DNA from: Xanthomonas campestris pv. campestris str. ATCC 33913
Lineage (GTDB): Bacteria > Pseudomonadota > Gammaproteobacteria > Xanthomonadales > Xanthomonadaceae
Direction: 5' to 3'
DNA length: 32,000 nt
Assembly (NCBI RefSeq): GCF_000007145.1
Contig: NC_003902.1
Coordinates: 3,326,497-3,358,496, forward strand
Positions 7,944-26,084 of the stretch are shown here, one piece after another. The first letter of the stretch is position 1, and every line of letters starts with the position of its first letter. A program made the position numbers and the translations under genes. A model generated the notes under the pieces. The model searched no databases. It was not told where the DNA came from and saw only the letters and a list, made by a program, of their open reading frames with translations.

Positions 7944-9440
7944 TCAGCCCCAGGTGCTTTGATCCACCTTGCAGTAGCTGTCGATAAACGCCTGCTGGGT
8001 CGGCAGCTGTGTCACCACGTGCTGCAGTGGCTGGCGGATGCCATCCAGCAACTGCTGCAGATGCTGGTCGGGCAAGGCGCGCGTCAACGGATGATGCTGC
8101 GCGGGCGCAACGCGCTGGCCGAGCAGCACATGCGTCCAGGAATCGACACGGAACAGTTCGTCGCCATCCTGCCAAGCATGGGCGCCCTCGCGCCATGCAC
8201 GCAGGCGCAGCTGCAGCGATTCCGGCAATTCCATCGCGCGGCATTGCCGCCACAGCGCCTCCTCGCGCTGGGTGGCGTGGTAATGCAGGATCACGAAATC
8301 GCGCACGTGCTCGGCTTCGGCGCGGCTGATGCGGTTGAACAGGTCCACCTGCGGTTGCGCGATGCCATCGGCGGGGAACAGCGTGATCAGGCGCATCACC
8401 GCCACGATCGCCAGATGGATGCTGGTGGATTCCAGTGGCTCCACGAAACCGCTCGCCAGGCCCAGCGCCACCACGTTCTTGTTCCAGGTCTGCAGCCGGC
8501 GGCCGGTGACGAACGGCACCAGCATCGGGTCGCGCCGTGGCGTGCCTTGCACCGCTGCCAACAGCATGGCGCTGGCTTCATCGTCGGAGAGGTGCGCCCG
8601 TGCGTAGACCAGCCCGTTGCCCACGCGATGCTGCAGCGGAATCTGCCAGCGCCAGCCGGCCGCATGCGCAATCGCGCGTGTATACGGCACCGGCGGCTCC
8701 ACCGATTCGGTCTGCACCGCAACTGCACGGTCGCAGGGCAGCCAATGGCTCCAGTCTTCATAGCCGGTGTGCAGGGTCTGCTCGATCAGCAGCCCGCGAA
8801 AACCGGTGCAATCGATGAACAGGTCGCCCTCGACCACTTGCCCGTCTTCCAGCACCAGCGCCTCGACGAAGCCGCTATCGGCATGCTGGCGCACCTGCTG
8901 GATCTTGCCCTCGATGCGGGTGGCGCCATAGCGCTGCGCGTGGGTGCGCAGAAAGCGCGCATACAGGCCGGCATCCAGATGGTAGGCATAGTTCACCGCG
9001 GGCTGCTGCAGCACCGCGAAGCGGTCCGCACGCGCGGCCTGCGCTTCCAGGCAGTACTCGTCGAAGCCGCTGTGCATGCCACGCCGCTGCGCCTCCAGCC
9101 AGAAGTGGTGGAAGGCGCACACCAGCGTGCCCTGCCCGGTGCTGCCAAACGGGTGGATGTAGCGATCACCCTGGCCTTGCCAGTCCTCAAAAGAGATGGC
9201 CAGCTTGAAGGTGCCGGCTACCGCACGCAGGAATTCCTGCTCGTCGATCTGCAGGAAGCGATGAAACGCGCGGATCGGCGGCACGGTGGATTCGCCCACG
9301 CCAATCGTGCCGATCTGCTCGGATTCCACCAGCACGATCTCCAGCAGCCCGCGAAACTGATGCGCCAGCGCGGCGGCGGCAACCCACCCGGCGGTGCCAC
9401 CGCCGGCAATGACAACCTTGCGAATGCGTGCCTGCGTCAC
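7944..9440 (-). CDS. Flavin-dependent tryptophan-halogenase-family protein
   Basis: 498 aa with a GTG start. Motifs present: GGGTAGW (GxGxxG FAD motif), Lys79 in GTFKLAISFEDW, GWRWQIP (WxWxIP), and FVEPLESTSI. Confidence 0.9.
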   Translation of the reverse strand: MTQARIRKVVIAGGGTAGWVAAAALAHQFRGLLEIVLVESEQIGTIGVGESTVPPIRAFHRFLQIDEQEFLRAVAGTFKLAISFEDWQGQGDRYIHPFGSTGQGTLVCAFHHFWLEAQRRGMHSGFDEYCLEAQAARADRFAVLQQPAVNYAYHLDAGLYARFLRTHAQRYGATRIEGKIQQVRQHADSGFVEALVLEDGQVVEGDLFIDCTGFRGLLIEQTLHTGYEDWSHWLPCDRAVAVQTESVEPPVPYTRAIAHAAGWRWQIPLQHRVGNGLVYARAHLSDDEASAMLLAAVQGTPRRDPMLVPFVTGRRLQTWNKNVVALGLASGFVEPLESTSIHLAIVAVMRLITLFPADGIAQPQVDLFNRISRAEAEHVRDFVILHYHATQREEALWRQCRAMELPESLQLRLRAWREGAHAWQDGDELFRVDSWTHVLLGQRVAPAQHHPLTRALPDQHLQQLLDGIRQPLQHVVTQLPTQQAFIDSYCKVDQSTWG

Positions 9441-9477
9441 TGCGCGTTCCTCGAAGAAGGGTGAAAAGTGAACCTGA

Positions 9478-10509
9478 TCAGCGATTGAGCCGGGCGATCA
9501 GCAGTGCGCGCAGTTGCCGCGCGAGCGCCGGGTCGATGGTGCCCAGCACCTGCCGCGCGGCCTCGGGCAGATGTGCGCCAGCCTGCTCGGCTGGACCGAA
9601 TACGTAGTAATCGAACACTGCGCGCCAGGCGGCTTTTTCCGCGGCGGGCCGGTCGCGGATGGACCACAGCGCGTGATACAGCGCCGGCATCGGTGCGGGC
9701 ACGTGCGCGGGCATGCTGCCCCACCAGTAATTGACCAGCACGTTGAAGGGCTGCAGCGCCATCACGTGGTGCCACCACATGCTGGGAATGAACACCGCAT
9801 TGCCCGGCTGCAACACGGCGGTACGCGCATGCGGCAACGCCTGCGCAAAGCGCGGATAGCGCTGCAGATCGGGCGCGGCCAGGTCCACCATGCTCACCAC
9901 CTGCCCGCCCGGCGTCGGCTCCAACGGCCCGGGATACAGGTTGGCAATCTGCTCTGGCGGAAACAGCGTGAAGCGCCGCTGCCCCACCGCGCAGCAGGCG
10001 AGATTATTCGGCACGTCGTAATGGCACGAGGCGACCACGCGGTTGCCGATCCAGATGCTCGGCTGCACGTTGCTGCCGCTGGCGCGCATGTCCAGGTCGT
10101 TGCCCGCACGCAGCCCGGGCAGGTAGTCATCGACCGGCAGCGAGGCCAGGTAATAGGTGGGCGGCTGCGCATCGTTGCGATGCGCTTCAATCGCCTCCAG
10201 CACACTGCCCAAGCTGCCACGGCGCACTTCGAAGTTGAGGTCGGTGACGTCATCGGTGTAGAACGGGCGCCCGGCAATCTCCGGGCCGCCATACGAATAT
10301 TGCAGCGGCTGCGCACGGTCGAACCTGCGCAACACAGCCATTGCCTCGGCATCGCCACGCTGGCCGGCCTGCACCAGCTGCCAGTCGCGTGCCACCCCGC
10401 GCAACACCACCGGCTGCGCTGCGGCACAGAGCGCGGCCAGCGGCAGCGCATCGGCCGTGCAATCGCTGCGCTCGGCAATTGGTGCCATGGCGTCGAACGG
10501 CGTGGTCAT
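9478..10509 (-). CDS. JmjC/cupin-like Fe(II)-oxygenase-fold protein
   Basis: 343 aa with ATG at 10509. A putative facial triad is HYD in ASCHYDVPNN plus a His in SMWWHHVMAL. The gene starts 10 bp after the SapC stop and ends 37 bp before the halogenase start. Confidence 0.85.
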   Translation of the reverse strand: MTTPFDAMAPIAERSDCTADALPLAALCAAAQPVVLRGVARDWQLVQAGQRGDAEAMAVLRRFDRAQPLQYSYGGPEIAGRPFYTDDVTDLNFEVRRGSLGSVLEAIEAHRNDAQPPTYYLASLPVDDYLPGLRAGNDLDMRASGSNVQPSIWIGNRVVASCHYDVPNNLACCAVGQRRFTLFPPEQIANLYPGPLEPTPGGQVVSMVDLAAPDLQRYPRFAQALPHARTAVLQPGNAVFIPSMWWHHVMALQPFNVLVNYWWGSMPAHVPAPMPALYHALWSIRDRPAAEKAAWRAVFDYYVFGPAEQAGAHLPEAARQVLGTIDPALARQLRALLIARLNR

Positions 10510-10519
10510 CTGCGTGGGC

Positions 10520-11278
10520 TCACGCGTGCGCGGCGGCAGGTGTGGCAGTGGCCTGCTGCAGACGACGCTGTTTTTCAGCCATCAAGCGGCGCAGATTGTG
10601 CTGCGAGGCCAGCATCAGGAAGGCACCTTCCAGGTAACCGGCCTGATGCAGCTGATGCAGTGCATGCGCGTCGAGGGATGCCAGGCGTTCGCGGTCGATG
10701 GCATACAGCCCGTCCAGATGCGCGCCGTGGTTGGCGTCCAGCGTGATGTCCAGCCGCACCGGCTGGATCAACCCGAGCGCATCGAACGCCGCGCACATCG
10801 GCTGCCCGGCATCCATGCCATCACGGATGCCGCGCAACACATCGATGATGTGCTGCAGATACGGGCTATGACCGCCCTGCGGCAAGAACACCGGCTCGCC
10901 GTCCGTGCGGCTCAGGCGCGGATGCTCCAGGTCGACATGGATCACCGGCTCCTGTACCAGCGCGCCATCGATGCGCTGCTCCTGGAAGCCGATCAAAAAT
11001 GGCCCTTTGGCAATGATTCCCGGCAGGTAGCTGGCATTCCAGCGCTGGTCCTGCAGGAAGAGGTTCTCGTCGTGCGCAAAGCCCAGCACCGCCACAGCCT
11101 GGTATGCGCCGCTGGCGGGATCCTTGCGAAAGAACAGAGGGTATTCGCGCTGCAACTCGGCAAATTCGGTGACGAAGGCCGGCACCAGGCCAACCGCATC
11201 GCCAAACTGCGCCCCGAACTGCAGGATGACGCGCACATCGTGATGCGCCACATTGTTGAGCACTGCGTATCGCGTCAT
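10520..11278 (-). CDS. SapC-family protein
   Basis: ORF 10520..11461 trimmed to the ATG at 11278 (MTRYAVLNNVAHHDVRVILQFGAQFGD...), with GGAG 5 nt upstream. The N-terminal pattern and ~250-aa length match SapC-family proteins as I recall them next to TBDR genes. Confidence 0.8.
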   Translation of the reverse strand: MTRYAVLNNVAHHDVRVILQFGAQFGDAVGLVPAFVTEFAELQREYPLFFRKDPASGAYQAVAVLGFAHDENLFLQDQRWNASYLPGIIAKGPFLIGFQEQRIDGALVQEPVIHVDLEHPRLSRTDGEPVFLPQGGHSPYLQHIIDVLRGIRDGMDAGQPMCAAFDALGLIQPVRLDITLDANHGAHLDGLYAIDRERLASLDAHALHQLHQAGYLEGAFLMLASQHNLRRLMAEKQRRLQQATATPAAAHA

Positions 11279-11557
11279 CGAAACTCCGGCGGGTAAGTGG
11301 CCTGCCCGGCCCTCTCCGCTGTAAGGCGGCGGTGGAGCGGCCGCTGCATCAAGCGTCTGCTGCAGGCGAGCATTGCGAAAAAGCGCGCCGCCGGCAAGCC
11401 GCACAGCACCATGCAGCTGCAGACGTGCACGCACCGCATCCGCGTGCGGCACGCGCAGCACGCTCGCCAGGCGAGGCGCATTGACGCACCGGCCTCAAGC
11501 GGTGCGGCAAGCGCAGTGCGCAGCTGCCGTAGACCGGCAACTGCGCCCCATCCGCGG

Positions 11558-14500
11558 TTAGAACGCGTAGCGCACGCCCAGCGTATAGCGCGGTTGCTGG
11601 TCGATCAGGCGGATGATCTGCTTGTCCGATCGCCCGTGCCAGCGCACGTCCTCGCCCGTCAGGTTGATGGCTTCAAAGCCGATCGACAGCTGCTTGCTGA
11701 AGGCGTAGCTGACACTGAGGTCCCACTGCTGGTACGCCTCGACGTAGTACGGGTTGCGGTTGGAATTGTCCTGGTTGGCGGCGATCAGATACTCGTCGCG
11801 CCAGTTCCATGCCAGACGCGCGCTGAAGCCGTACTTTTCGTACATCAGCATGGCATTGGCGGTGTCGCTCAAGCCCAGCAAGGCGAACTGGTCGCGGTCG
11901 ATCACGGTGTTGTCGAAGCCGACATCGCCTTCCACGATGGTGTAGTTGGCGTAGATGCCGAAGCCGCTGCTGCCGAAGAAGTACTGCCCTCCCAGTTCCC
12001 AGCCATGAATATTGGCCTTGTTCTGGTTGATCGGCCGCGAGACATCGAACTGATACAGCGGGTCGCTACTGTTGCCGGTGATGTCGTAAGCGTTCTCCAG
12101 CGCCAGGCTCTGCGCGGAGCTCCCGTTGTAGGCACCCAGGCCGCCGGTGGCTGCGGCGTTGCGCAACAACGCCATGGCCGCGAACAGCGAGGTGTCGTTG
12201 GCCGAACACGCCGCGGCAACGTCATTGCCGGACGCACCCACCTGGGCTGCGCAGGCACCGCTTTGCAGGAAGGCCAACGCCGCCTGCGCATCCGGCCCGG
12301 AGGTAGGGTCGGTGAGCCCGTACAGCGATTCGCGCGACACCGTGTTGCCGATGAAGTTGCTGACGCGCTTGTTCCAGAACGTGGCCGACACATAGCTGGC
12401 GTCGGCGAAGTACCACTCCAGCGCCAGGTCGAGGTTGTCCGATTCCAGCGGATCGAGCTGCGGGTTCTGCGAGTCGCCACCGGCACGGTTGGAGGGGTTG
12501 ATCAGGATCGAACCGTTGGGCGTGTTGGGCGTGGGCCCGGCAATCAGGTTGTTGTAGGGTGCGCGCGCAATGGTCTGGCCGAACGAGGCACGCCCCTTCA
12601 GCTGGTCGGTGATGTCGATGCTGAAATCGAGATTGGGCAGGATGTAGTTGTAGCTGGTCTTTTCACTGAAGGGCTGCAGCTCTGCCGAACGGACCAGCTG
12701 GAAGTCGTTGTTGGACTGCCACAGCAAACCGGTTGGCGTGGCCACCTGCGACACCGATTCCACATCGGTGCGCTCGTAGCGCAGGCCCAGCCGCGTATTG
12801 GTGGTCATGCCGGCGATATCGCCCTGCAATTCCAGCTGCACGTACGCCGCGCGGGTCTTCTCTTCCACCTGGTTATCGGCGCTGTATTGCGGGTTGTAGC
12901 GCGTGGTGGCGCCGTACTGGCTGCCACCCCACAACGCGAGTTGGTCGGCATCGCCACGCCAGGCGCTGGGCGCCGCGCCATTGGCATTGAAGTCCTTGAA
13001 CATGCCGGTGATGCTGACCGGCTGCAGCAACGCCACCATGCCCGGCTCATTGCCGGCATTGGCCACGCTCCAGTCACCGAGCGTGGAGTTGGTGTCGCTG
13101 GTGAGCCGGTTCATCTTGGTATTGGCCGAGCTCACGCCGAACTGGAAGCGGCCGTCGTCGAAGTCGAACGTGCCGTCCACACGCCCTTCCTTGATCTCGT
13201 TCACCTGCGATTGGTAGTAGATGCGCAACACCTGCGAGCCCAGGTTGCCCGCGGTGAAGTCCGGGTTGACCACGCCATTGGTGCCGGCCAGCGAATCGGC
13301 CGCGGTGGGGTACCAGGTGCGTGCGCCGATCGGCAGCGAATTGTTGAACCACAACTCCTGGCCCCACTGCCCGCCGCACAGCGGGCCGCTGGCGCAGTTG
13401 TTGGTGCCGGCAAGGCTGAAATAGGTGGCGCTGCCGCCGGTGACCGGGTCGTTGGGCAGGCTCTTGGTCTTGGAGTTGTGCGCATCGAAACTCAGCTGGA
13501 AGCGGTCGCTCACCTGCCAGTCCGCGTTGAAGCCGAGCGAGCCGAGCGTGTACTTCTGCTCGTTGCGCTGCTGCTCCATGCCGAAGTCCTTGGCACCACT
13601 GGGCACATCGCGCAGATACACCGGCGTGGCCACGGCCTGGCCGGTATCGAAGGTCAGGTCGGTGAAGCTGTTGGCGCGCTGCAGCCAGATGCCCTGCTCG
13701 CCACGCTCCTCGCGGATTTCATTGGACGAATAGGTGTAGTCCAGGGTCAAGGTCAGGCTATCGGTGGGCGCAAACTGCATCACCGCCTGGCCATTCATGC
13801 GCTCGCGCTGGAAGTCGGCGAACGCGTAGCGGAGGTCATTGGGCATGCCGTACAGCTGGCCGATCGCCGGTGCGTTGGTCACCACCGCATCCGGACGCAG
13901 CGCGGGATCGGTGCCGGTCCAGCGCTGGATATTCCAGGTGTTTTCGGTGGCCTGCACCGAGCCGCCATGGCGCTTCTGGTAGCTGGCGCTCAGGCCGATA
14001 CCGAAGGTCTTGTCGGGGTTGGTGTAGCTGAAGATGCCCGACACTTCGGGGGTGAGCGAATCGCCGAATGGCTGCGAGCGGTCAGACACCATCTTGGCGC
14101 CGGCATTGGCCACCACGCCGGAATGGTTGAACGGCTTGTCGGTCTGGATATTGATGGTGGCGCCGATGCCGCCGCTGGGCGCCGTGGCGCGGCTGGTCTT
14201 GTAGACCTCGATGCCGGTGATCGCTTCAGAGGCCAGCTGCGCGAAGTTGAACGCGCGCGTGCCCACGTCTACGCCGCCGATTGGCGTTTGGCCCGGTGCG
14301 CCGAAGGCGTCCGCACCCGGGATCAAGCGCCCGTTGAGCGTGACCGTATTGAACTGCGGGCCGAAGCCACGCGCGGTGACCTGCGCGCCCTCGCCATCGC
14401 GGCGTTCGATCGAGATACCGGTGATGCGTTGCAGCGACTCGGCCAGATTGGTATCCGGGAATTTGCCGATGTCTTCAGCGCTGATCGCATCCACCACGCC

Positions 14501-14713
14501 GGCGGCGTCGCGCTTGATGCCCATCGACTGGTCCAGGCTGCTGCGGATGCCGGTGACGTTGACGGTGTCGAGCGTGGTAGCAGCGTCGCTGCTGGACTGT
14601 GGCGGCGGTGCTTGCGGCGTCGTGTCCTGCGCAAAGGCGGGATTGATGACCAGCAAACCGCCAACGAAGGTGAACATGGCCTTCGACTTGAAGCTCTTCA
14701 ACGTACGACGCAT
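11558..14713 (-). CDS. TonB-dependent outer-membrane receptor
   Basis: ORF trimmed to the ATG at 14713, with GAGGA upstream. Signal peptide MRRTLKSFKSKAMFTFVGGLLVINPAFA. TonB-box-like TLDTVNVTG and plug-domain motifs are present. The ~1050-aa beta-barrel ends in ...YTLGVRYAF with a terminal aromatic residue. Confidence 0.95.
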   Translation of the reverse strand: MRRTLKSFKSKAMFTFVGGLLVINPAFAQDTTPQAPPPQSSSDAATTLDTVNVTGIRSSLDQSMGIKRDAAGVVDAISAEDIGKFPDTNLAESLQRITGISIERRDGEGAQVTARGFGPQFNTVTLNGRLIPGADAFGAPGQTPIGGVDVGTRAFNFAQLASEAITGIEVYKTSRATAPSGGIGATINIQTDKPFNHSGVVANAGAKMVSDRSQPFGDSLTPEVSGIFSYTNPDKTFGIGLSASYQKRHGGSVQATENTWNIQRWTGTDPALRPDAVVTNAPAIGQLYGMPNDLRYAFADFQRERMNGQAVMQFAPTDSLTLTLDYTYSSNEIREERGEQGIWLQRANSFTDLTFDTGQAVATPVYLRDVPSGAKDFGMEQQRNEQKYTLGSLGFNADWQVSDRFQLSFDAHNSKTKSLPNDPVTGGSATYFSLAGTNNCASGPLCGGQWGQELWFNNSLPIGARTWYPTAADSLAGTNGVVNPDFTAGNLGSQVLRIYYQSQVNEIKEGRVDGTFDFDDGRFQFGVSSANTKMNRLTSDTNSTLGDWSVANAGNEPGMVALLQPVSITGMFKDFNANGAAPSAWRGDADQLALWGGSQYGATTRYNPQYSADNQVEEKTRAAYVQLELQGDIAGMTTNTRLGLRYERTDVESVSQVATPTGLLWQSNNDFQLVRSAELQPFSEKTSYNYILPNLDFSIDITDQLKGRASFGQTIARAPYNNLIAGPTPNTPNGSILINPSNRAGGDSQNPQLDPLESDNLDLALEWYFADASYVSATFWNKRVSNFIGNTVSRESLYGLTDPTSGPDAQAALAFLQSGACAAQVGASGNDVAAACSANDTSLFAAMALLRNAAATGGLGAYNGSSAQSLALENAYDITGNSSDPLYQFDVSRPINQNKANIHGWELGGQYFFGSSGFGIYANYTIVEGDVGFDNTVIDRDQFALLGLSDTANAMLMYEKYGFSARLAWNWRDEYLIAANQDNSNRNPYYVEAYQQWDLSVSYAFSKQLSIGFEAINLTGEDVRWHGRSDKQIIRLIDQQPRYTLGVRYAF

Positions 14714-15330
14714 CGATGTGTCCTCGGGTGGTGTGCAACTGCCCACGGCCGTGCGCGCGACATGCGACACCGCCACTGTCTTTGCCGGCATCCCTGCGGA
14801 TGTCCGGCGAACTGCCTGCAGCAAGTTCTGTGATCCCCTGCGGTGCAACTCAACGACGGATCCCCCGAGCCAGTCGTGTCCTGCCCGTCGCGTACGACGG
14901 CGACTTCCTCTCTGATCCGTTCCAGCTGATGACTGCGCCAGTGGCCCTGCTCTGCAACAGCCGCTGGCGTGATAGCGCTAACACGCGGCGCAGCCTAATC
15001 ACCGGCAACAGCGCTTGTCACCGTGCGTTGCAGCAAATCTTTAACAACCCGACCGGGCCTGCAAACAACGCTGCGCTTGAGCCCGCAGCGCAGCTTCAAC
15101 AACGGCGTGGCTGTAAGCGTTACCAAGCACGCCTCGAAAACACACCGCCAAAACGCGCTGAAAACAGGCCGCATAACCGTTGCAGGCGTGACCATGCCGA
15201 CACTTGCGCAAGCGCCCTGCCAACGCGGCCGGATGTGGATCGCTTATCGAAGAACGATGCGACGGTGCGGGCCGCAACCCGCGTGCGCAGTGCTGCGTGC
15301 AAACGGTGGCGTTGCTGCAAGGCGCGCACG

Positions 15331-19434: not shown

Positions 19435-20076
19435 GCGTGGCGGTGGCGAACGTCACTGCGTCGCGTTGCTGCCAGCGCGTGGCCCAAGAGCCACTCCGCA
19501 GCGTGCTGCGCGCGCGTGGGCTGGCTGCTGGCCCGGTGCAATTGGACGGCGTGGATGGCGCGTCAGTGGTCGTGGGCGGCGACATCGCCGCGTCTCAGAT
19601 ACGCGCCCGCGCCGAAACCAGTCCACAGCCGCACGATCACTTTGCCGAGTCTGCCGGGTTCGCGCCGATCACAGCGCTGGACACACACCTGCAACCGAGT
19701 GGTCTTTTTTCGCCACCCATCTTGACAGCGTGACGGGCCGGGGCCTGTGCCCACTTGTCCACAGCCTTGTGCAGTCTTCATCCACAGGGGATGTGGAAAA
19801 CCCGATCAACGCAGTGCGGGCGGCACGGCTTGCGTGCAGTTGCCGGTGTGTGCAAGGCGTTTTGATGCGATGTGCTGAATGCAGGGCCACGCGCTGCGAT
19901 GGATGCGCATGGCGACAGCAACCATCTACTGCCGGTTCCAAACGCGTGGAGTGCACGCCGAGATTGAGCCCAAGCGATTGGCGCGCAGCAACTCAGCAGA
20001 GAGCCGGCCGTCGCCGCGCGTCAGTACGCATGCCACTGATGTAGCTGCTCGAAACCGGACCCGCGCATGCAGCGCA

Positions 20077-20100
20077 CACCGCCACCTCGCAGTGGCGGTG
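20077..20100 (-). terminator. 9-bp-stem hairpin 17 nt downstream of the last gene of the pspA-like operon
   Basis: CACCGCCAC-N6-GTGGCGGTG. The following T-tract is weak. Confidence 0.35.
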
Positions 20101-20116
20101 CACGCATAGCAGCGTC

Positions 20117-21283
20117 TCAATCCACGATCACGTGCGGCACGAACCGCGAGGTATCGCGGGTGATCGGGCCGTCGTCATCGCGCATGCCCAGGCCCGCCGG
20201 GCGATCGGCCACTACCCAGCTGCCGACCAGCGCATGCCGGCCGTCGAACACCGGCAGCGGATGATGCGCCTGCAGAATGGCCAGGCCATCCAGGTACGGC
20301 CCATCGGTGTGCGCCATCTCGCCCTGCGCGGTAACCAGCGCGATGTTGGCGCCCTCGCGCGACAGCAACGGCTTGCGCACCCACCCGGCAGTAGGCGCCT
20401 CGCCGGCCTGTGCAAAGCGCGCGGCGAGCAGATTGGGGTGGCCCTGATGGCGCTCCCACAACAGCGGCAGGATGCCCTTGTTGCTCAGCACTGCCTTCCA
20501 TGCCGGTTCGATCAGACGCACGCGGTTGGCGATCAACGCCGGGCCGAATCGCTCTTCCATCATGAATTCCAGCGGGTACAGCTTGAACAGCGTGTGGATC
20601 ACCCGGTCCTGCTCATCGGTGAACCAGCCATCTGCGCTGAGGCCGATGTCTTCGATCGCCACTTCCTCGGTGCTGATGCCCACCTGGTGCGCGCAATCGC
20701 GCAGGTAGCGCACGGTGGCGCGGTCTTCCAGCGAATCACGCACTGCAGAAAAATGCATCTGCGGGCCAACCGCTCCATCCACTGCCAGCGCACCCAGGGT
20801 TTCGCACAGCAGGTCCTGGATCAGGTTGTACTGGTCGGTGCCCTTGGGCAGCGCGCCGCTGGCAATCTGCTGTTCCAGCCACAGCCACTGGAAATACGCC
20901 GCCTCGTACAACGAGGTCGGTGTGTCGTAATTGAGCTCGTACAACTTGGCCGGGCCATTGCCGGCATAGGCCAGATCCATGCGGCCGTACAGATGCGGGT
21001 CGCGGTTCTTCCAGGAGGTGGCGATCCAGTCCCAGTAGAACGGCGGCAGTGCCAGCTGCGTCATCAACGCTTCGGAGCCGACCACCTCGTCGACCAACTG
21101 CATCGCCATGTCGTGCAGCTCCTGCGTCGGCGTCTCGATGTCGTCTTCGATCTGCCGCAACGAAAACGCGTAGTACGCGCTTTCGTCCCAATACGGTTCG
21201 CCGTCGATGGTGTGGAACTGGAAGCCGAGCGATTCGGCCTGGGTGCGCCAATCCGGGCGCTCGGCGATGGCAATACGTTGCAT
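20117..21283 (-). CDS. Glutathionylspermidine-synthase-family ATP-grasp ligase (YjfC-like)
   Basis: ORF trimmed to the ATG at 21283 (MQRIAIAERPDWRTQAESLGFQFHTIDGEPYWDESAYY...), 388 aa. The N-terminal and central motifs resemble the E. coli YjfC / GSP-synthetase preATP-grasp family. Confidence 0.9.
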   Translation of the reverse strand: MQRIAIAERPDWRTQAESLGFQFHTIDGEPYWDESAYYAFSLRQIEDDIETPTQELHDMAMQLVDEVVGSEALMTQLALPPFYWDWIATSWKNRDPHLYGRMDLAYAGNGPAKLYELNYDTPTSLYEAAYFQWLWLEQQIASGALPKGTDQYNLIQDLLCETLGALAVDGAVGPQMHFSAVRDSLEDRATVRYLRDCAHQVGISTEEVAIEDIGLSADGWFTDEQDRVIHTLFKLYPLEFMMEERFGPALIANRVRLIEPAWKAVLSNKGILPLLWERHQGHPNLLAARFAQAGEAPTAGWVRKPLLSREGANIALVTAQGEMAHTDGPYLDGLAILQAHHPLPVFDGRHALVGSWVVADRPAGLGMRDDDGPITRDTSRFVPHVIVD

Positions 21284-21284
21284 G

Positions 21285-21860
21285 TCAGCCGCCAAACCCG
21301 GAGCTGCGCCCGCCACTGCCGAACGAGCTGCGCGCCGCGGCGCTGGAGCCAAAACCCGAGCGCGACACGGTGATGGCGCGGGTTGGCATGTCCACGCTGC
21401 CGGCGCGGCCGCGCACGGTGCCGATGCGGTTGCTGGCCACATCGCCGTTGGGCTTGTAGTAGCCGCCGCTGCGGTAATCGCGGTATAGCGGCATCGCGCC
21501 GCCATAGCGATACCCGCCGCCGCTCATGTTGCCCAGCGCGTAGCCGAGCAGAAAGCCGCCCATCGGCGGGATCCAGCTCTGCTGCCCCTGGGTCTGGCCA
21601 GGCACTTCGGTGCAGCTGCCAAATTGCGCATCGCACTCGTAGCGCGAAGTGAAGCGCGGCGCGGCCTGCTGGTGCTTGGCCACGGCCTCGTCATACGCCT
21701 TCAGACACTGCTGGATGTCGCCCTGTTCCTGCTTGATCTGGTAGCAGTCCGAGGCCGACTGCAACACCACGCCGGTTTCCGGCTCCGAGCCGCAACCGGT
21801 GACGAAGGCGGCCGGCAGCGCGGCCATCAGGGTGAGCTTGAGATTGCGTGATCGCTTCAT
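21285..21860 (-). CDS. DUF1190-family lipoprotein (YjfM-like)
   Basis: Lipobox MKRSRNLKLTLMAALPAAFVTGC and a Gly/Ser/Arg/Tyr-rich C-terminal half. Its stop lies 1 nt before the ligase start. Confidence 0.8.
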   Translation of the reverse strand: MKRSRNLKLTLMAALPAAFVTGCGSEPETGVVLQSASDCYQIKQEQGDIQQCLKAYDEAVAKHQQAAPRFTSRYECDAQFGSCTEVPGQTQGQQSWIPPMGGFLLGYALGNMSGGGYRYGGAMPLYRDYRSGGYYKPNGDVASNRIGTVRGRAGSVDMPTRAITVSRSGFGSSAAARSSFGSGGRSSGFGG

Positions 21861-21872
21861 GCCTGCGCTCCG

Positions 21873-22277
21873 TTACGGCGTGATCGCCGCGGCGTTGATC
21901 AGGCCAACCGCGATCGACACGCCGGCCGAAAAAATACCGGCGGCGGCGACGTTGTCGGTGATTTGCCGCGAGATGCGCCCGGCCACCAGGTTGGCCAGCA
22001 GATACGCCACCACCTGGATACCGCAGGCCACCACGCCCCAGATCAAGGCATCCACCAGGCTCACCGAATGGGTGATGGCCGAATGCAGCGGCAGCGCCAC
22101 GCCGATCAGGTTGCCGGCCAGCGCGGTGGCGGCCGCCACGTTGCCCTGGCGCAGCAGGGTGAAATCCTTGTGCGGGGTGACCAGGGTCACCAGCACCACC
22201 GCGACGATCAACACGCCCAGGCCGGTGCCGAAGTAGGAAAGAAACGCGAGGAAACTCTGCAGATTGATCGGGTTCAT
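21873..22277 (-). CDS. DUF350-family small membrane protein (YjfL-like)
   Basis: 134 aa with four hydrophobic segments (MNPINLQSFLAFLSYFGTGLGVLIVAVVLV...). Its position in the operon matches E. coli yjfL. Confidence 0.8.
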   Translation of the reverse strand: MNPINLQSFLAFLSYFGTGLGVLIVAVVLVTLVTPHKDFTLLRQGNVAAATALAGNLIGVALPLHSAITHSVSLVDALIWGVVACGIQVVAYLLANLVAGRISRQITDNVAAAGIFSAGVSIAVGLINAAAITP

Positions 22278-22311
22278 GACAGGACCAGGGTGGTGGAAGA
22301 CGGGTGAGCGC

Positions 22312-22989
22312 TCAGGTGATGTCCAGATCGGCGACGGTGACGTCGATGCCGACCGCGTAGGTGACGCAGAATTCGTTGGGGCCGGAATCCTCGCCGGTGA
22401 CCAGCAGGAATTCTTCGCGCTGCAACTCCGGCACCGGCCGGCTGTAGAGCATCGCGTAGTGGGTCAGATCGCCATCGCGGCGCGGCGGCTGATAGCGGTA
22501 CAGCACCTCGTCGTAGGCAATCGGCGGAATGCGCGCGGCATCGTCGGTGGATTGGGTGGCACGGTCCCAGCGCTTGCCGGCGTACTCGATCTGCGCCGCA
22601 CCCAGGTGCGGATGCTGCATCACGAATTCCTGGAAGGCCTGCTTGCTCGGCGGATTCACCGTCTCGCAATACACGAAGGCCTTCATCGCCTCCAGATCGC
22701 CACCCACGGTGGTGACCTGCAGAAACGCGTCATCGTCCAGATAGAACCGGTGCAGCGCATAGCCATCGCCCAGATTGACGTGGCCATAGCACGGGATGCC
22801 CTGATGCCCGCCCGGCAATTCGGCGGTCATCGCCTCGGGCGCCATGCGGTACAGCGTGGTGTCGATCTCGAGCTGGCCACCCACGCGCAGCCCCAACGGC
22901 AGCGCATGGCCGATCGCGCCAGTGCCGGTGGTCGGCAGCGGTGGCGGCTGGGATTGGCCGAACAACTTGCTGAAAAAACTCATCGTCAT
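22312..22989 (-). CDS. DUF2491-family protein (YjfK-like)
   Basis: I chose the ATG at 22989 because it overlaps the channel gene's TGA as ATGA; the ATG at 22983 is an alternative. Peptide: [12 protein letters not shown]...HRFYLDDDAFLQVTTVGGD... Confidence 0.75.
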   Translation of the reverse strand: MTMSFFSKLFGQSQPPPLPTTGTGAIGHALPLGLRVGGQLEIDTTLYRMAPEAMTAELPGGHQGIPCYGHVNLGDGYALHRFYLDDDAFLQVTTVGGDLEAMKAFVYCETVNPPSKQAFQEFVMQHPHLGAAQIEYAGKRWDRATQSTDDAARIPPIAYDEVLYRYQPPRRDGDLTHYAMLYSRPVPELQREEFLLVTGEDSGPNEFCVTYAVGIDVTVADLDIT

Positions 22990-24068
22990 GCACCTCGTGG
23001 CGATGGGGAAGCGGAAACGGCCGCAGCGCGCAGGGCCTGCCACGCGATGGATTGCGCAGGCACGCGCTGCTCGGCCAGGTAATACAGCATGGCACCGGCC
23101 GGTACAGCGGTCTGTGCGGGCGGGTTCAACCGCAACGCGCCATCGGGCGCGCGCAGGCCCAGCAACAAGGCACCGCGCTGGCTGAAATCAGCCGCCAGCA
23201 GGCTGTAATCCAGCGCCTCCAGCTGTGCCGGCACGGCCAGGCTGAACTGCGTGGGGCCGTCGTCCACCGACAACAGCTCGGCGGTGATCGCGGCACTGCC
23301 CGGGTCCTGCGCGGCGCGGGCCAGGATCTCGGCAGTCATCGGGCGCGTGCATTCGATCGCCGGGTAATGGCAGGCCACCAGCCGCGCGGCGCTGGCCGAA
23401 TCGAAATGCGCCACGATGTGCGCGCGCGGCGCATGCGCCATCAGTGCGAAGACCGCAGCCAGGGTCTGGTCGTCGGACGGCGGATTGACGATCACCCGCG
23501 CCGCACCGGCGATGCCCGCACGCAGGTAGACATCGGTGTGGGTGTACGACTCGGCAGCCACGAAACGCATGTGGTCGGGCATCGGGTTTTCGGCCACGCC
23601 CTCGGCCACCAGCACCACGCCTTCGTCGTCGGTGGCGGTGTCGGACAACAACAACTCCAGCAAGCGTGCCGAGGCCGCGCCTTGCCAGCCGATCAGGATG
23701 GTGTGCCCGCTCAACTGCGCGTAGGCCATCTTGCCCATGTGGTGGCGCCTCCAGAAGGTGATGAGCACCGCGCTGGTCTTGGCCAGCACCGTGGCGAACA
23801 GCGCCACCGCGCCCGGCATCAGCACGAACGCGGCGATATAGCGCCCGGCCACCGAGCCCGGCGACAGATCGCCGTAGCCGATGGTGGTGGCAGTGGTCAT
23901 GTAGTAATACGGAAACGCGTCCAGGCCGACGAGCTTGTGCTCACCGGCCAGGACGAACAGCACCCAGCTCAACCCCATGTGCGCCAGCAGGGCCAGCGCC
24001 ACCATGCCCCAGCTCACGCGGCGCACGTGGCGCCGCAAGACCCGGTACAGCCGTCCGACGATGATCAT
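22986..24068 (-). CDS. Two-TM potassium channel with a cytoplasmic RCK/TrkA-like domain
   Basis: 360 aa, ATG at 24068 with AGGA upstream. Selectivity filter TTIGYGD flanked by two hydrophobic helices. A C-terminal ~220-aa domain begins [19 protein letters not shown] (Rossmann-like). Confidence 0.9.
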
Positions 24069-24094
24069 GGCGCGTCCTGTGCCGTGGGGTGCGG

Positions 24095-24868
24095 TCAGCT
24101 GTCGCTGCGCGGAACCTGCTGCACGTCGCGGACCTGGCCGATCAACGGCGCGGTGCCGCTGGCGGTGTCGTGCCCGAGCTGAGCGGCCGGCTTCTTGAAG
24201 CGCGCCAGCACCGCAGCGGCGTTGGACTCGCCTTCCATCAGGCCGGCCGCGGCCAGACGCCGATTCAGATCGCCATCGCCGGTGGACGATTCGAGCTCCT
24301 CAGCCGATTCGATGCGTGCGGAGGTTTCGGCCTGGCGCGCCTTGATGCGCTCCAGCGATTCCAGTGCCGACCCCATCTTGCTGCTCGCACCGGAATGCCG
24401 CGCGGCAATCGCGGCCTGCGCTTTCTGCACCGCATCGGTGGCCTTGACGGTGTCGATCTGCTGGCGCATGCCGCGCAGCTGGTTTTCGGTTTTCTGGATG
24501 GTGGCCTTGAGCGTCACCACCGACTGATCCAGCGCGGTCTTGGAGGCCTTGTCGCCGGCGTCCTCGCTTTCCAGCGCCGCCAGCTTGACCGCCACATCGT
24601 GCGCCAGCGCTTCATCGTTCTTGGCCAGCGCGCCTTCGATATAGCGCGTGTACTCGGCCATCTTGCCGGCGCGCGCGTCGATCTTCTGCTGCGCCAGCTT
24701 GCTCTGCGCCATCAGCTTGGTGAGCTCTTCGCGCGAACGCGTGAGCTGGGCGCCGGCATCGCGCATTTCCTGGTCCAGGATGCGCAGGGCGTTGGCGTCC
24801 ACGGCCTTCTGGCCGGTTTCGTGTGCGGTGCCACGCAGCAGCGTGATCAGCTTGGAAAAGATACTCAT
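24095..24868 (-). CDS. PspA/IM30-family protein (YjfJ-like)
   Basis: 257 aa beginning [38 protein letters not shown]... Long heptad-rich helical sequence typical of PspA/IM30. Confidence 0.9.
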
Positions 24869-24880
24869 GACAACACGCCT

Positions 24881-25297
24881 TTAGGAAAAGAACGGCTTGA
24901 GGGATTCGGCGGCATCCAGCGTATTGGCCGCCAGGGTCTGGATTTCCTCGTCGATCTGGTCGAGCGTCGAGGAGGCCGACAATTCGCCGAACACCACGTA
25001 GGCGTCCTTGCCGTCGACCTGCACCAGACCGAGATTGGAGAGCGGATTGAGCGGGTTAAGCCGCAGGCACGCGTCGTTGAACGCGGCGCGGTCGCTGACC
25101 TGGTCGGCGTTGGCCAGCAGCGTGGACACGAACACCTGCGAACCGGACGCGGCCACCTGGATCTGCATGTCGCCGTGATCGGCCAGGGTGAGGTTGATGG
25201 CCGGCTCCAGCCCGTCGATCAGTTCGACCTCGATCGGCTGGTCGCGGTAGCGCTCGGCCAGCAGGCCGTGCAGTTCAACAGTGGTGTACTGCGTCAT
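24881..25297 (-). CDS. DUF2170-family protein (YjfI-like)
   Basis: ORF 24881..25354 trimmed to the ATG at 25297 ([24 protein letters not shown]...), with AGGA upstream. It is the first gene of the operon, 12 bp upstream of the pspA-like gene. Confidence 0.75.
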
Positions 25298-25484
25298 GGG
25301 ATGTCCTGTCCTTTGGTCATTCGGCGGCGGAGTGCGGCGGCGGTGAGGCCGCAACGGTCAAGCAATGGGCGGACATACTACAGAGACTTGGTGAACAGCA
25401 GAACGGCCGTCAGGCAGGGGGCATTCAGGGCCACTTCGCTGCCATCAAGCACGGCCGGCGCTGCGGCCCGGCAGGGCCGTGGCC

Positions 25485-26084
25485 TTACGGATACAGCATC
25501 CGCTTGCTCCAGTGGCTGGCCGCGTCCGCCTCGTAGCGCCAGCGCTCGTGCAGGCGGAATTTGGCGCCGTACCAGAACTCGAATGCCTGCGGCACCACGC
25601 GGAATCCGCCCCAGCCATCCGGGCGCGGCACGTCGCGGCCGTCGAAGGTGGCTTCGACCTTGGCAATGGCCGCCTCGAACTCCTCGCGCGAGCCCAGCGT
25701 CTGCGATTGCAGCGACGCCCAGGCACCGATCTGGCTCATGCGCGGCCGCGAGGCAAAATAGGCGTCCGATTCGTCGGCGCTCACCAGTTGCACGCCGCCT
25801 TCGATCCGCACCTGGATGCCGGCCTCGCGCAGGCTGCGCCACAGGAACAGCAGCGCCGCCTGCGGGTGGGTCTGCAGGTCGCGGCCCTTGGCGCTGTCCA
25901 GATGCGTGTAGAAGACGAACCCGCGTGCATCGAACGCCTTCAGCAACACCGTGCGCGCGCTTGGCCGGCCGTCCAGGTTGGCGGTGGCCACGGTCATGGC
26001 GCTGGCCTCGATTTCGGCACTGTTCTGCGCCTCGGCATACAGCGTGGCGAAGGTGGCGAGGGCTTCTGCGTACAGATCGGTCAT
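25485..26084 (-). CDS. pdxH: Pyridoxamine 5'-phosphate oxidase
   Basis: [12 protein letters not shown]...[24 protein letters not shown]...[17 protein letters not shown]...RMLYP. I preferred the ATG at 26084 over the TTG at 26093. Confidence 0.9.

Follow-up and report, generated by a model that had tools for sequence, protein, structure and literature searches.

The 32,000-nucleotide stretch of the Xanthomonas campestris pv. campestris str. ATCC 33913 chromosome analysed here (contig NC_003902.1, positions 3,326,497 to 3,358,496, referred to as the window) contains seven minus-strand genes between positions 20117 and 25297, which are read with moderate confidence as a Xanthomonas version of an operon conserved in gammaproteobacteria. 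Its order is yjfI-yjfJ-kch-yjfK-yjfL-yjfM-yjfC, of which the Escherichia coli cluster yjfIJKLMC is a form without the channel gene, and a stress mechanism is proposed for it below. The operon type, the K+ channel included, has already been described, and the genes of the window are a further Xanthomonas member of it. Ravi et al. 2024 (PMC11237479) describe an operon class that combines a dyad of CesT/Tir (YjfI) and PspA with an ATP-grasp ligase related to glutathionylspermidine (GSP) synthetase, and they also list a K+ channel, DUF350, a DUF1190 lipoprotein and DUF2491 in that class (PMC11237479). An earlier reading of the same DNA, made from its letters alone and called the original prediction here, had stated that the module was noted in comparative genomics, which this publication bears out. 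Its further statement that the module had not been characterised experimentally holds for the system as a whole but not for its parts, since data exist on the ligase, on yjfIJKL in heat-evolved lines and on BacA/BacB. The points that are new here are the slot of the channel over three orders, its co-divergence with the module, its independent decays, its rarity in E. coli, its lack of the Ca2+ triad of MthK and of a GxGxxG motif, a candidate internal start in the channel gene and the Gly-Gly tail of the DUF1190 protein.

Families and layout of the seven genes

Pfam matches were counted against the gathering scores, and all seven named families score above them. The assignments of the original prediction, for which it had suggested a profile-HMM search, are thereby upheld: every open reading frame (ORF) falls in its named family, with the RCK domain of the channel assigned through MthK and not through Pfam. 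The YjfI-like protein matches DUF2170 (3e-44) and the PDB entry 8q8o, a “DUF2170 family protein” (6.5e-19), shares 36% identity with E. coli YjfI, and is a CesT/Tir-like chaperone-fold partner of the PspA paralogue. The latter, the YjfJ-like protein, matches PspA_IM30 (1.4e-38), is 34% identical to E. coli YjfJ over 231 aa, and weakly matches the Vipp1/PspA structure 6zvr along residues 2-227 (E 0.0026). Against the canonical PspA equivalog TIGR02977 it reaches 28 bits, the cut-off being 243, and a Pfam search of the seven operon proteins gave no match to PspB or PspC. It is a PspA/IM30 (bacterial ESCRT-III) paralogue, not the canonical PspA equivalog.

The YjfK-like protein matches DUF2491 (2e-65). 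Its AlphaFold (AF2) model (pLDDT 86, pTM 0.81) is mostly beta-strand and a signal peptide is not visible in its sequence; a mainly beta-strand cytoplasmic protein is predicted. A Foldseek comparison of the model with the PDB returned nothing significant, with PsbP as the best match (E 7e-3, TM 0.21-0.27), Mog1 and SciW at ~0.1, and TM values <0.3. The reading of YjfK as an outer-membrane porin (PMC12492005) is unsupported by this sequence without a signal peptide. A link between DUF2491 and DUF4178, which would join two of the operon classes of Ravi et al., was also rejected, as 28 members gave zero Pfam matches of this kind even at E = 1. The N-terminus of the YjfK-like protein, MSFFSKLFG (22960-22989), resembles that of the PspA paralogue (24840-24868), which is amphipathic, and a low-confidence proline-rich linker follows it in the model; the motif shared by the two proteins may be a short amphipathic membrane-targeting helix.

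The YjfL-like protein matches DUF350 (3e-36), shares 35% identity with E. coli YjfL, and has four hydrophobic segments as read from the translation, which mark it as a small inner-membrane protein of the four-transmembrane DUF350 type. The remaining two proteins match DUF1190 (YjfM-like, 2e-32) and GSP_synth (YjfC-like, 6e-148). The codon bias of the operon is that of real genes, with third-position G+C (GC3) values of 0.79-0.88 in six operon ORFs, a set that does not include yjfM, in a window of 65% G+C.

The gene starts used are those picked in the original prediction, which had claimed seven minus-strand genes with very short gaps; the ORF coordinates and a reading of the junctions reproduce its gap values of 12, 26, -4, 34, 12 and 1 bp (Table 1). 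The channel stop and the yjfK start share the sequence GCATGACGATG, an ATGA overlap. An alternative yjfK ATG two codons downstream would give a protein that begins with MSFF, as E. coli YjfK does, and would place the channel gap at 2 bp instead of -4 bp; with either start, the channel gene and yjfK appear tightly coupled. Internal terminator-like sites are not above chance in a terminator scan (4 against 2.8 +/- 1.6 expected), and the seven genes are probably a single transcription unit. The hairpin that the original prediction placed after the last gene is recovered as a strong RNA fold (-37.5 kcal/mol, z = -4.2; 0/200 shuffles equally stable). This hairpin has no U tract and is therefore uncalled by the consensus terminator scan; it probably ends or stabilises the transcript.

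An alignment of the 230 nt located 5' of yjfI, from 13 Xanthomonas loci plus the window, reveals a promoter-like block, ..TTCTGCCGGTC..CAGTCTGTAGTATGTCC, that is kept in all of them regardless of the upstream gene, in addition to a conserved ribosome-binding region, AAGGACAGGA. The block is the best candidate for the operon promoter or operator. Further upstream, the sigma-54-like stretch TGGCAGCGAAGTGGC (25430-25444, minus strand) resembles the -24/-12 consensus and the sites of E. coli psp and Pseudomonas aeruginosa bac; the stretch is unconserved in other Xanthomonas, and a sigma-54 promoter was therefore dropped from consideration.

An MthK-type channel in a conserved slot

The third gene of the operon encodes a K+ channel (Ion_trans_2, 1e-10). 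Residues 8-329 align with residues 5-319 of MthK (3rbz) in a phmmer search (E 1.8e-15), the helices of the AF2 model (pLDDT 83) fit TM1, the pore helix and TM2, and the best Foldseek matches of that model are all MthK (E 7e-18, TM 0.62-0.73). The alignment over the full length of MthK, together with the Foldseek result, assigns to the channel two transmembrane helices and one C-terminal RCK domain; against the Pfam family TrkA_N, the channel scores 17.6 bits, under the cut-off of 23.8. Its identity to a protein of Xanthomonas arboricola is 91%, and a protein of another assembly reaches 99%.

In the selectivity filter, T62, G64, G66 and D67 are invariant over three orders. The RCK invariants over the same orders are H122, G127-W128, L139-L141, D199, H217, V219, E239, D255-G257-S258 and N315-P316. 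The Ca2+ triad of MthK, D184/E210/E212, aligns to N195/H221/D223 of the channel, and these positions vary in the channel family (N/H/Y/F, H/W/Y and D/E, respectively). The triad is absent, and the channel should therefore not be called a Ca2+-gated MthK orthologue. Additionally, the GxGxxG motif is missing after beta-1, where the loop reads LIGWQGAAS and only G127-W128 is invariant. From the absence of both motifs, the ligand of the channel is judged not to be Ca2+ at the MthK site and is probably not a dinucleotide.

A candidate internal translation start is present in the channel gene at Met111 (Table 1), which aligns with MthK residue 107. In MthK, a soluble RCK is made from the internal start Met107 and completes the eight-RCK gating ring (PMC2573919, PMC2920069). 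The GGAGG upstream of Met111 arises from an AGG arginine codon. No other AGR codon occurs in the operon, and in twelve genes of the window only 1.1% of the arginine codons are AGR. The position remains AGG or AGA in all Xanthomonas, one Stenotrophomonas and several Lysobacter loci, and the neighbouring third positions vary. In the enterics, AAAGGA precedes ATG codons in the corresponding channel linker; the Glaciecola and Alteromonadaceae loci have no Met at this position. These features are good sequence-level evidence, although not proof, that the channel gene also encodes a soluble RCK comprising residues 111-360.

The presence and absence of the channel were followed over at least 80 loci, as the original prediction had suggested, by scanning a single genome of each species with patterns drawn from aligned DUF2491 sequences and locating the seven genes by tblastn. 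The DUF2491 and channel scans are probe-biased and give the best 80 loci, which serve as examples and not as frequencies; the word-indexed protein searches reached Lysobacterales relatives only, and the wider range comes from the pattern scans. The loci closest to the window are all Xanthomonas. Almost every Xanthomonas species, and many Lysobacter and allies, have an intact channel gene between pspA and yjfK, and the same slot is occupied in Frateuria, one of two Stenotrophomonas metagenome-assembled genomes (MAGs), Glaciecola, an Alteromonadaceae MAG, Enterobacter, three Citrobacter species and one E. coli. The slot is common to Lysobacterales, Enterobacterales and Alteromonadales, an overlap of the channel gene with yjfK (-4 or -1) recurs in the three orders, and the enteric channel gene also overlaps pspA. 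In four Lysobacter loci (L051, L054, L058 and L061), 284-462 bp separate the end of the pspA match from the channel start, compared with ~25 bp in Xanthomonas, which could reflect a longer PspA C-terminus or an extra small gene.

The channel and the other module proteins give correlated pairwise distances (r = 0.93-0.98; Mantel 0/2000), which is the pattern expected of a channel that was already travelling with the module when the orders split. In a metagenome scan with channel patterns, 23 loci have a detected neighbouring module gene, and in 21 of these the channel adjoins pspA, yjfK or both and is oriented as they are. The other two are variant arrangements: in locus L108 (3-1113), yjfI-pspA is divergent from the channel, and in locus L094 (58-2129), the channel is followed directly by yjfL, with yjfK missing.

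The channel is missing, with a gap of 33-260 bp in its place, in Pseudoxanthomonas, Luteimonas, some Lysobacter, X. maliensis and Xanthomonas sp. AmX2, as well as in a groundwater gammaproteobacterium and K-12-like Escherichia. Decaying copies are also observed. The X. populi channel carries a frameshift (L020 8978-9935), the X. bromi channel is reduced to residues 19-54 and 285-330 in a 412-bp gap after a deletion of ~230 codons (L024 7406-7644), and a 50-codon remnant (residues 78-127) is left in a Stenotrophomonas MAG (L030 1602-1748). The channel has thus decayed independently in at least three lineages.

In E. coli, the statement of the original prediction that the gene order is the same and the channel is missing is correct for the order and for K-12, in which yjfI-yjfJ-yjfK-yjfL-yjfM-yjfC (b4181-b4186) has a yjfJ-yjfK gap of 50 bp. 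It is not correct for the species, since the slot between yjfJ and yjfK holds the channel in 19 of 5426 complete E. coli genomes (and not in the other 5407). The E. coli channel, annotated as “potassium channel family protein”, lies at the usual rlmB-aidB locus (L071 8928-9998; L113 4503-5573, strain EC42405). In the L071 genome, YjfI is 80% identical to K-12 YjfI and the proteins from YjfK to YjfC are 92-98% identical, which suggests that the allele is old or imported.

A channel found in one slot in three orders and diverging in step with its neighbours is not the strain-specific insertion, independent of the module, that the original prediction had named as a way in which it could fail. The channel is an old, integral and dispensable part of the operon. 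Its dispensability lends some weight to the idea that it is a passenger, that is, an ordinary ligand-gated K+ channel that serves K+ homeostasis at large on its own and is mechanistically unconnected with PspA and the ligase. The repeated losses in which the other six genes are kept would fit a passenger, as would the presence of the channel in just 19 of the 5426 E. coli genomes and the existence of a standalone relative (L097 5932-7029, 40% identity) on a low-GC metagenome contig, where the neighbours are unrelated trypsin-like, DsbA-like and NUDIX genes and no module genes occur within 6 kb. However, the slot shared by three orders, the start-stop overlaps with neighbouring genes, the co-divergence with the module (r = 0.98), and the 21 of 23 metagenome relatives that adjoin pspA and/or yjfK in the same orientation all speak against a passenger, as does the expectation that a passenger would not hold its position and its translational coupling over ~70% sequence divergence. 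The passenger explanation is therefore considered unlikely, and the channel is treated below as a working part of the operon.

The DUF1190 tail and the YjfC-type ligase

The YjfC-like protein aligns over its full length with the PDB entries of YgiC (7uk8, 1.2e-124) and YjfC (7uk6, 7.5e-124), shares 51% identity with E. coli YjfC, and aligns with GspSA (residues 248-617) and trypanothione synthetase in their synthetase halves only. These alignments place it in the YjfC/YgiC peptide-spermidine ligase family as a stand-alone GSP_synth ATP-grasp protein without the amidase domain. E. coli YjfC and YgiC are reported to be peptide-spermidine ligases (Pederick et al. 2023, as cited in PMC11762307 and PMC12568646), and “peptide--spermidine ligase” is the RefSeq product name of both. 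The original prediction had described the ligase chemistry as not known; an activity has since been reported for the E. coli enzymes.

The DUF1190 gene is always directly before the ligase gene, at a distance of 1 bp in the window, 2 bp in yjfMC and 5 bp in ygiBC, the last being a paralogous DUF1190-ligase pair without PspA that adjoins tolC. The YjfM-like protein contains a lipobox, VTGC (..FVTGC), is predicted to be a lipoprotein, and ends in a Gly/Ser/Arg-rich tail, ..TVSRSGFGSS..ARSSFGSGGRSSGFGG. The consensus of the DUF1190 tails is ..TVSR[SG]G[FY]G[SR]S..A[RK].., ending in [W/F/Y/R]-Gly-Gly. Among the fetched loci, 50 of 58 distinct tails end in GG, and the remainder have GS or SS ends or come from pseudogenes or mis-hits. 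E. coli YjfM (L001 12388-13026) ends in HWGG, and its paralogue YgiB (L112 2745-3416) ends in SMGG. An exhaustive HMMER search of 1.84 billion representatives yielded 146 full-length DUF1190 relatives at <=50% identity, with 108 GG, 17 GS and 10 SS ends and a lipobox-like motif in 132. In a 1328-aa protein (P0257), a Cys-rich segment of DUF1190 (query residues 36-74) is matched in 11 separate stretches, so this motif can be tandemly repeated.

The first known member of the ligase family was glutathionylspermidine synthetase, which joins spermidine through an amide bond to the carboxylate of the glycine at the C-terminus of glutathione. On the basis of this chemistry, the Gly-Gly carboxylate of the DUF1190 protein is proposed as the natural acceptor of the YjfC ligase, which is among the most speculative steps of the present interpretation. 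No statement of such a role for the tail was found in the literature searched, a search outside of which the primary ligase paper lies. The view that the Gly-Gly is a mere by-product of the ligase Shine-Dalgarno sequence is partly true in the enterics but was rejected as the sole cause. The codons are GGC-GGC, which does not form a Shine-Dalgarno sequence, in 38 of 62 distinct junctions, and the constraint is therefore at least partly on the protein.

The same observations could be explained if the operon were mainly a polyamine-conjugate pathway, in which yjfK-L-M-C makes and exports or anchors a spermidine-modified peptide or lipoprotein destined for the envelope and the PspA dyad and the channel merely buffer the membrane meanwhile. 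The reported peptide-spermidine ligase activity of the family, the ygiBC pair that stands next to tolC without PspA, and the conservation of the DUF1190 tail family-wide are consistent with such a pathway, as are the operon variants of Ravi et al. in which the PspA dyad is swapped for other proteins and the polyamine genes stay (PMC11237479). However, E. coli transcriptomics shows co-regulation of yjfIJKL and not of the ligase pair, a product is still lacking, and an exported substrate is in topological conflict with a cytosolic enzyme. A pathway of this kind is regarded as rather improbable, and the operon continues to be read here as a stress system in which the PspA paralogue and the channel have roles of their own.

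Table 1. Positions of the genes and other features of the operon in the window
Feature	Position	Strand	Remarks
yjfI-like	24881-25297	-	138 aa; ATG start 19 codons inside listed TTG ORF
yjfJ-like (PspA/IM30)	24095-24868	-	257 aa
MthK-type K+ channel gene	22986-24068	-	360 aa
yjfK-like	22312-22989	-	225 aa; ATG start 18 codons inside listed GTG ORF
yjfL-like	21873-22277	-	134 aa
yjfM-like	21285-21860	-	191 aa
yjfC-like	20117-21283	-	388 aa; ATG start 74 codons inside listed ORF
TTIGYGD selectivity filter	23868-23888	-	residues 61-67
Candidate internal translation start	23736-23752	-	GGAGG 9 nt upstream of in-frame ATG, Met111
Terminal Gly-Gly codons of yjfM-like	21288-21293	-	tail 21288-21340
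Promoter-like block upstream of yjfI	25371-25404	-	-10-like TAGTAT at 25375-25380
Ribosome-binding region	25304-25313	-	conserved
GC-rich hairpin	20072-20105	-	begins 12 nt after yjfC stop; between convergent genes

Proposed mechanism and comparison with known systems

The component families fit a role of the operon in envelope or ion stress, which we infer by analogy with their better-studied relatives. In the mechanism proposed, YjfI would hold or regulate YjfJ, as suggested for BacA/BacB. Upon damage to the inner membrane or loss of the proton-motive force, YjfJ would polymerise on the inner leaflet and seal or remodel it, as PspA and Vipp1 do; the membrane function of the PspA family is established. 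The channel would form a tetramer, its gating ring probably completed by the soluble RCK from the internal start as in MthK, and would open when a ligand binds from the cytoplasm, one other than Ca2+ (at the MthK site) or a dinucleotide (at a GxGxxG site). K+ would then run down its gradient, which would reset the membrane potential and turgor during membrane repair. In parallel, YjfC and ATP would amidate a peptide carboxylate with spermidine, and the preferred acceptor may be the Gly-Gly C-terminus of the DUF1190 lipoprotein, whose gene lies 1 bp upstream. The ligase product or a free polyamine is a candidate for the RCK ligand, by analogy with the glutathione adducts that gate KefC. The acceptor, the RCK ligand and the KefC analogy are conjecture and the most speculative steps of the mechanism. 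A link between polyamines and PspA-based membrane dynamics in this operon class has been proposed by Ravi et al. (PMC11237479).

In its most specific form, the proposal would state that YjfC/YgiC spermidinylate the Gly-Gly carboxylate of the upstream-encoded YjfM/YgiB before export, which would be a new type of post-translational modification in bacteria, with spermidine at the C-terminus of an envelope lipoprotein, and that in the seven-gene form the non-Ca2+ RCK channel, made both as the full-length protein and as a soluble RCK from Met111, senses the pool of polyamine or conjugate and thereby couples K+ flux to PspA repair. This combination as a whole is quite unlikely, and it is offered as a speculation.

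Several points weigh against the stress reading and its mechanism. The co-transcription of the seven genes is deduced from their spacing only. A sigma-70 consensus scan of 19600-25700 yielded no promoter, the TAGTAT block included. The channel was lost in Pseudoxanthomonas, Luteimonas, some Lysobacter, X. bromi, X. maliensis and nearly all E. coli, and its repeated loss from operons that keep the other six genes implies that the core function works without it; the standalone relative in L097 shows that a related channel also occurs apart from the module. Additionally, the C-terminus of the DUF1190 protein is expected to end in the periplasm, whereas the ATP-dependent ligase has no signal peptide, so the modification of an exported lipoprotein by a cytosolic enzyme would have to precede export. 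Finally, the enteric Gly-Gly codons, TGGGGAGG (TGG GGA GGC), double as the Shine-Dalgarno sequence of the ligase gene, and part of the Gly-Gly conservation could be at the nucleotide level.

The chromosomal setting bears on a different possibility, namely that the operon acts in anti-phage defence or abortive infection, with a phage-shock-type protein and an ion channel that collapse the membrane potential on infection. In line with this possibility, phage infection was what first revealed PspA, as an induced protein, and defence systems include ion channels and effectors that disrupt membranes. A PADLOC search gave one marginal match, of YjfI to AbiEii (E 6.6e-4), which is not a real match, and none for the other six proteins. 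The operon occupies a conserved chromosomal site among housekeeping genes (pdxH, aroK/aroB and hemE in Xanthomonas; rlmB and aidB in E. coli) and is inherited vertically across orders, unlike defence islands. A defence function is accordingly held to be exceedingly improbable.

In the window, the operon lies between pdxH and a gene for a major facilitator superfamily (MFS) transporter, and the flanking chromosomal genes comprise pdxH, aroK/aroB, hemE, the MFS transporter gene, an M1 peptidase gene, a TonB-dependent receptor cluster and a LuxR solo. The LuxR-family solo, which combines GerE with an autoinducer-binding domain, and a divergently oriented gene for an amino-acid permease lie at 232-2577, and the TonB-dependent receptor cluster at 7944-14848 is accompanied by a tryptophan-halogenase-like protein and a cupin; both regions are unrelated to the operon. 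RNA searches of the window found no Rfam families and no tRNAs.

The PspA/ESCRT-III proteins guard bacterial membranes, and the cations of the cytoplasm are chiefly K+ and polyamines, which makes the operon an entry to the coupling of membrane repair and ion balance. The operon is widespread, with members in plant pathogens (Xanthomonas), enterics and marine Alteromonadales and a minimal version in the genetically tractable E. coli K-12, and the rare channel-carrying E. coli strains permit a direct comparison at the same locus. Were the Gly-Gly tail indeed the acceptor, this would define a new protein modification and assign a role to two y-gene pairs of E. coli, of which one belongs to the tolC operon. 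Should this lead fail along with those on the soluble RCK from Met111 and on the channel ligand, the locus stays a correctly annotated member of a known, unexplained operon family.

A comparison with the canonical Psp system (pspABCDE/pspF) reveals clear differences: the PspA equivalog and PspB/PspC were not found among the seven operon genes, nor was a conserved sigma-54 site upstream of them. The biofilm-associated bacABCDEF cluster of P. aeruginosa (PA3732-) is closer in its first genes, as it starts with DUF2170 (BacA, for which a crystal structure exists) followed by PspA_IM30 (BacB), as in Xanthomonas. The BacA/BacB dyad has effects on rhamnolipids and on the formation of biofilms, and its BacA member appears to hold down expression of the partner genes (PMC10948618). 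The YjfI-like protein scores 102 bits against the BacA equivalog NF050185 (NCBIfam), below the cut-off of 300, and is therefore not BacA itself; upstream of Xanthomonas yjfI, nothing conserved corresponds to the proposed sigma-54 site of bac.

The glutathione-gated K+ efflux systems KefC and KefB control K+ flux by a KTN/RCK domain that senses a glutathione-type molecule, and in the operon an RCK channel is encoded alongside a ligase resembling glutathionylspermidine synthetase, which is an analogy only; the Kef proteins are CPA2 antiporter-type transporters and not tetrameric channels, and the comparison is made at the level of the RCK fold only. The KTN domains that bind NAD(H) or nucleotides (Kch, TrkA and KtrA) carry a GxGxxG motif that the channel does not have. 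MthK of Methanothermobacter (PDB 1lnq, 3rbz, 6u68) is colinear with the channel, and the two have in common the TxGYGD filter and one RCK per subunit; a Shine-Dalgarno-ATG pair of the channel gene falls at the position of the internal start of MthK (Met107). The identity between them is ~20%, MthK is Ca2+-gated whereas the channel here is without the Ca2+ triad, and H122, G127-W128, D199, H217, E239 and D255-G-S258 are invariants specific to the channel family in comparison with MthK.

The YjfC-like ligase resembles YjfC and YgiC in having the GSP_synth domain alone and in following immediately after a DUF1190 gene, as in yjfMC and ygiBC; GspSA differs from it by carrying an amidase (CHAP) domain. 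The E. coli cluster yjfIJKLMC has the same gene order, and the six shared proteins are 25-51% identical; the Xanthomonas copy adds the channel and occupies another chromosomal site. In heat-adapted E. coli lines, yjfIJKL is upregulated by a promoter mutation that arose during adaptation (PMC12492005). The closest counterpart in content is the group 3 operon of Ravi et al., all components of which are found here on one strand, with a gap of 12 bp between the DUF2170 and PspA_IM30 genes.

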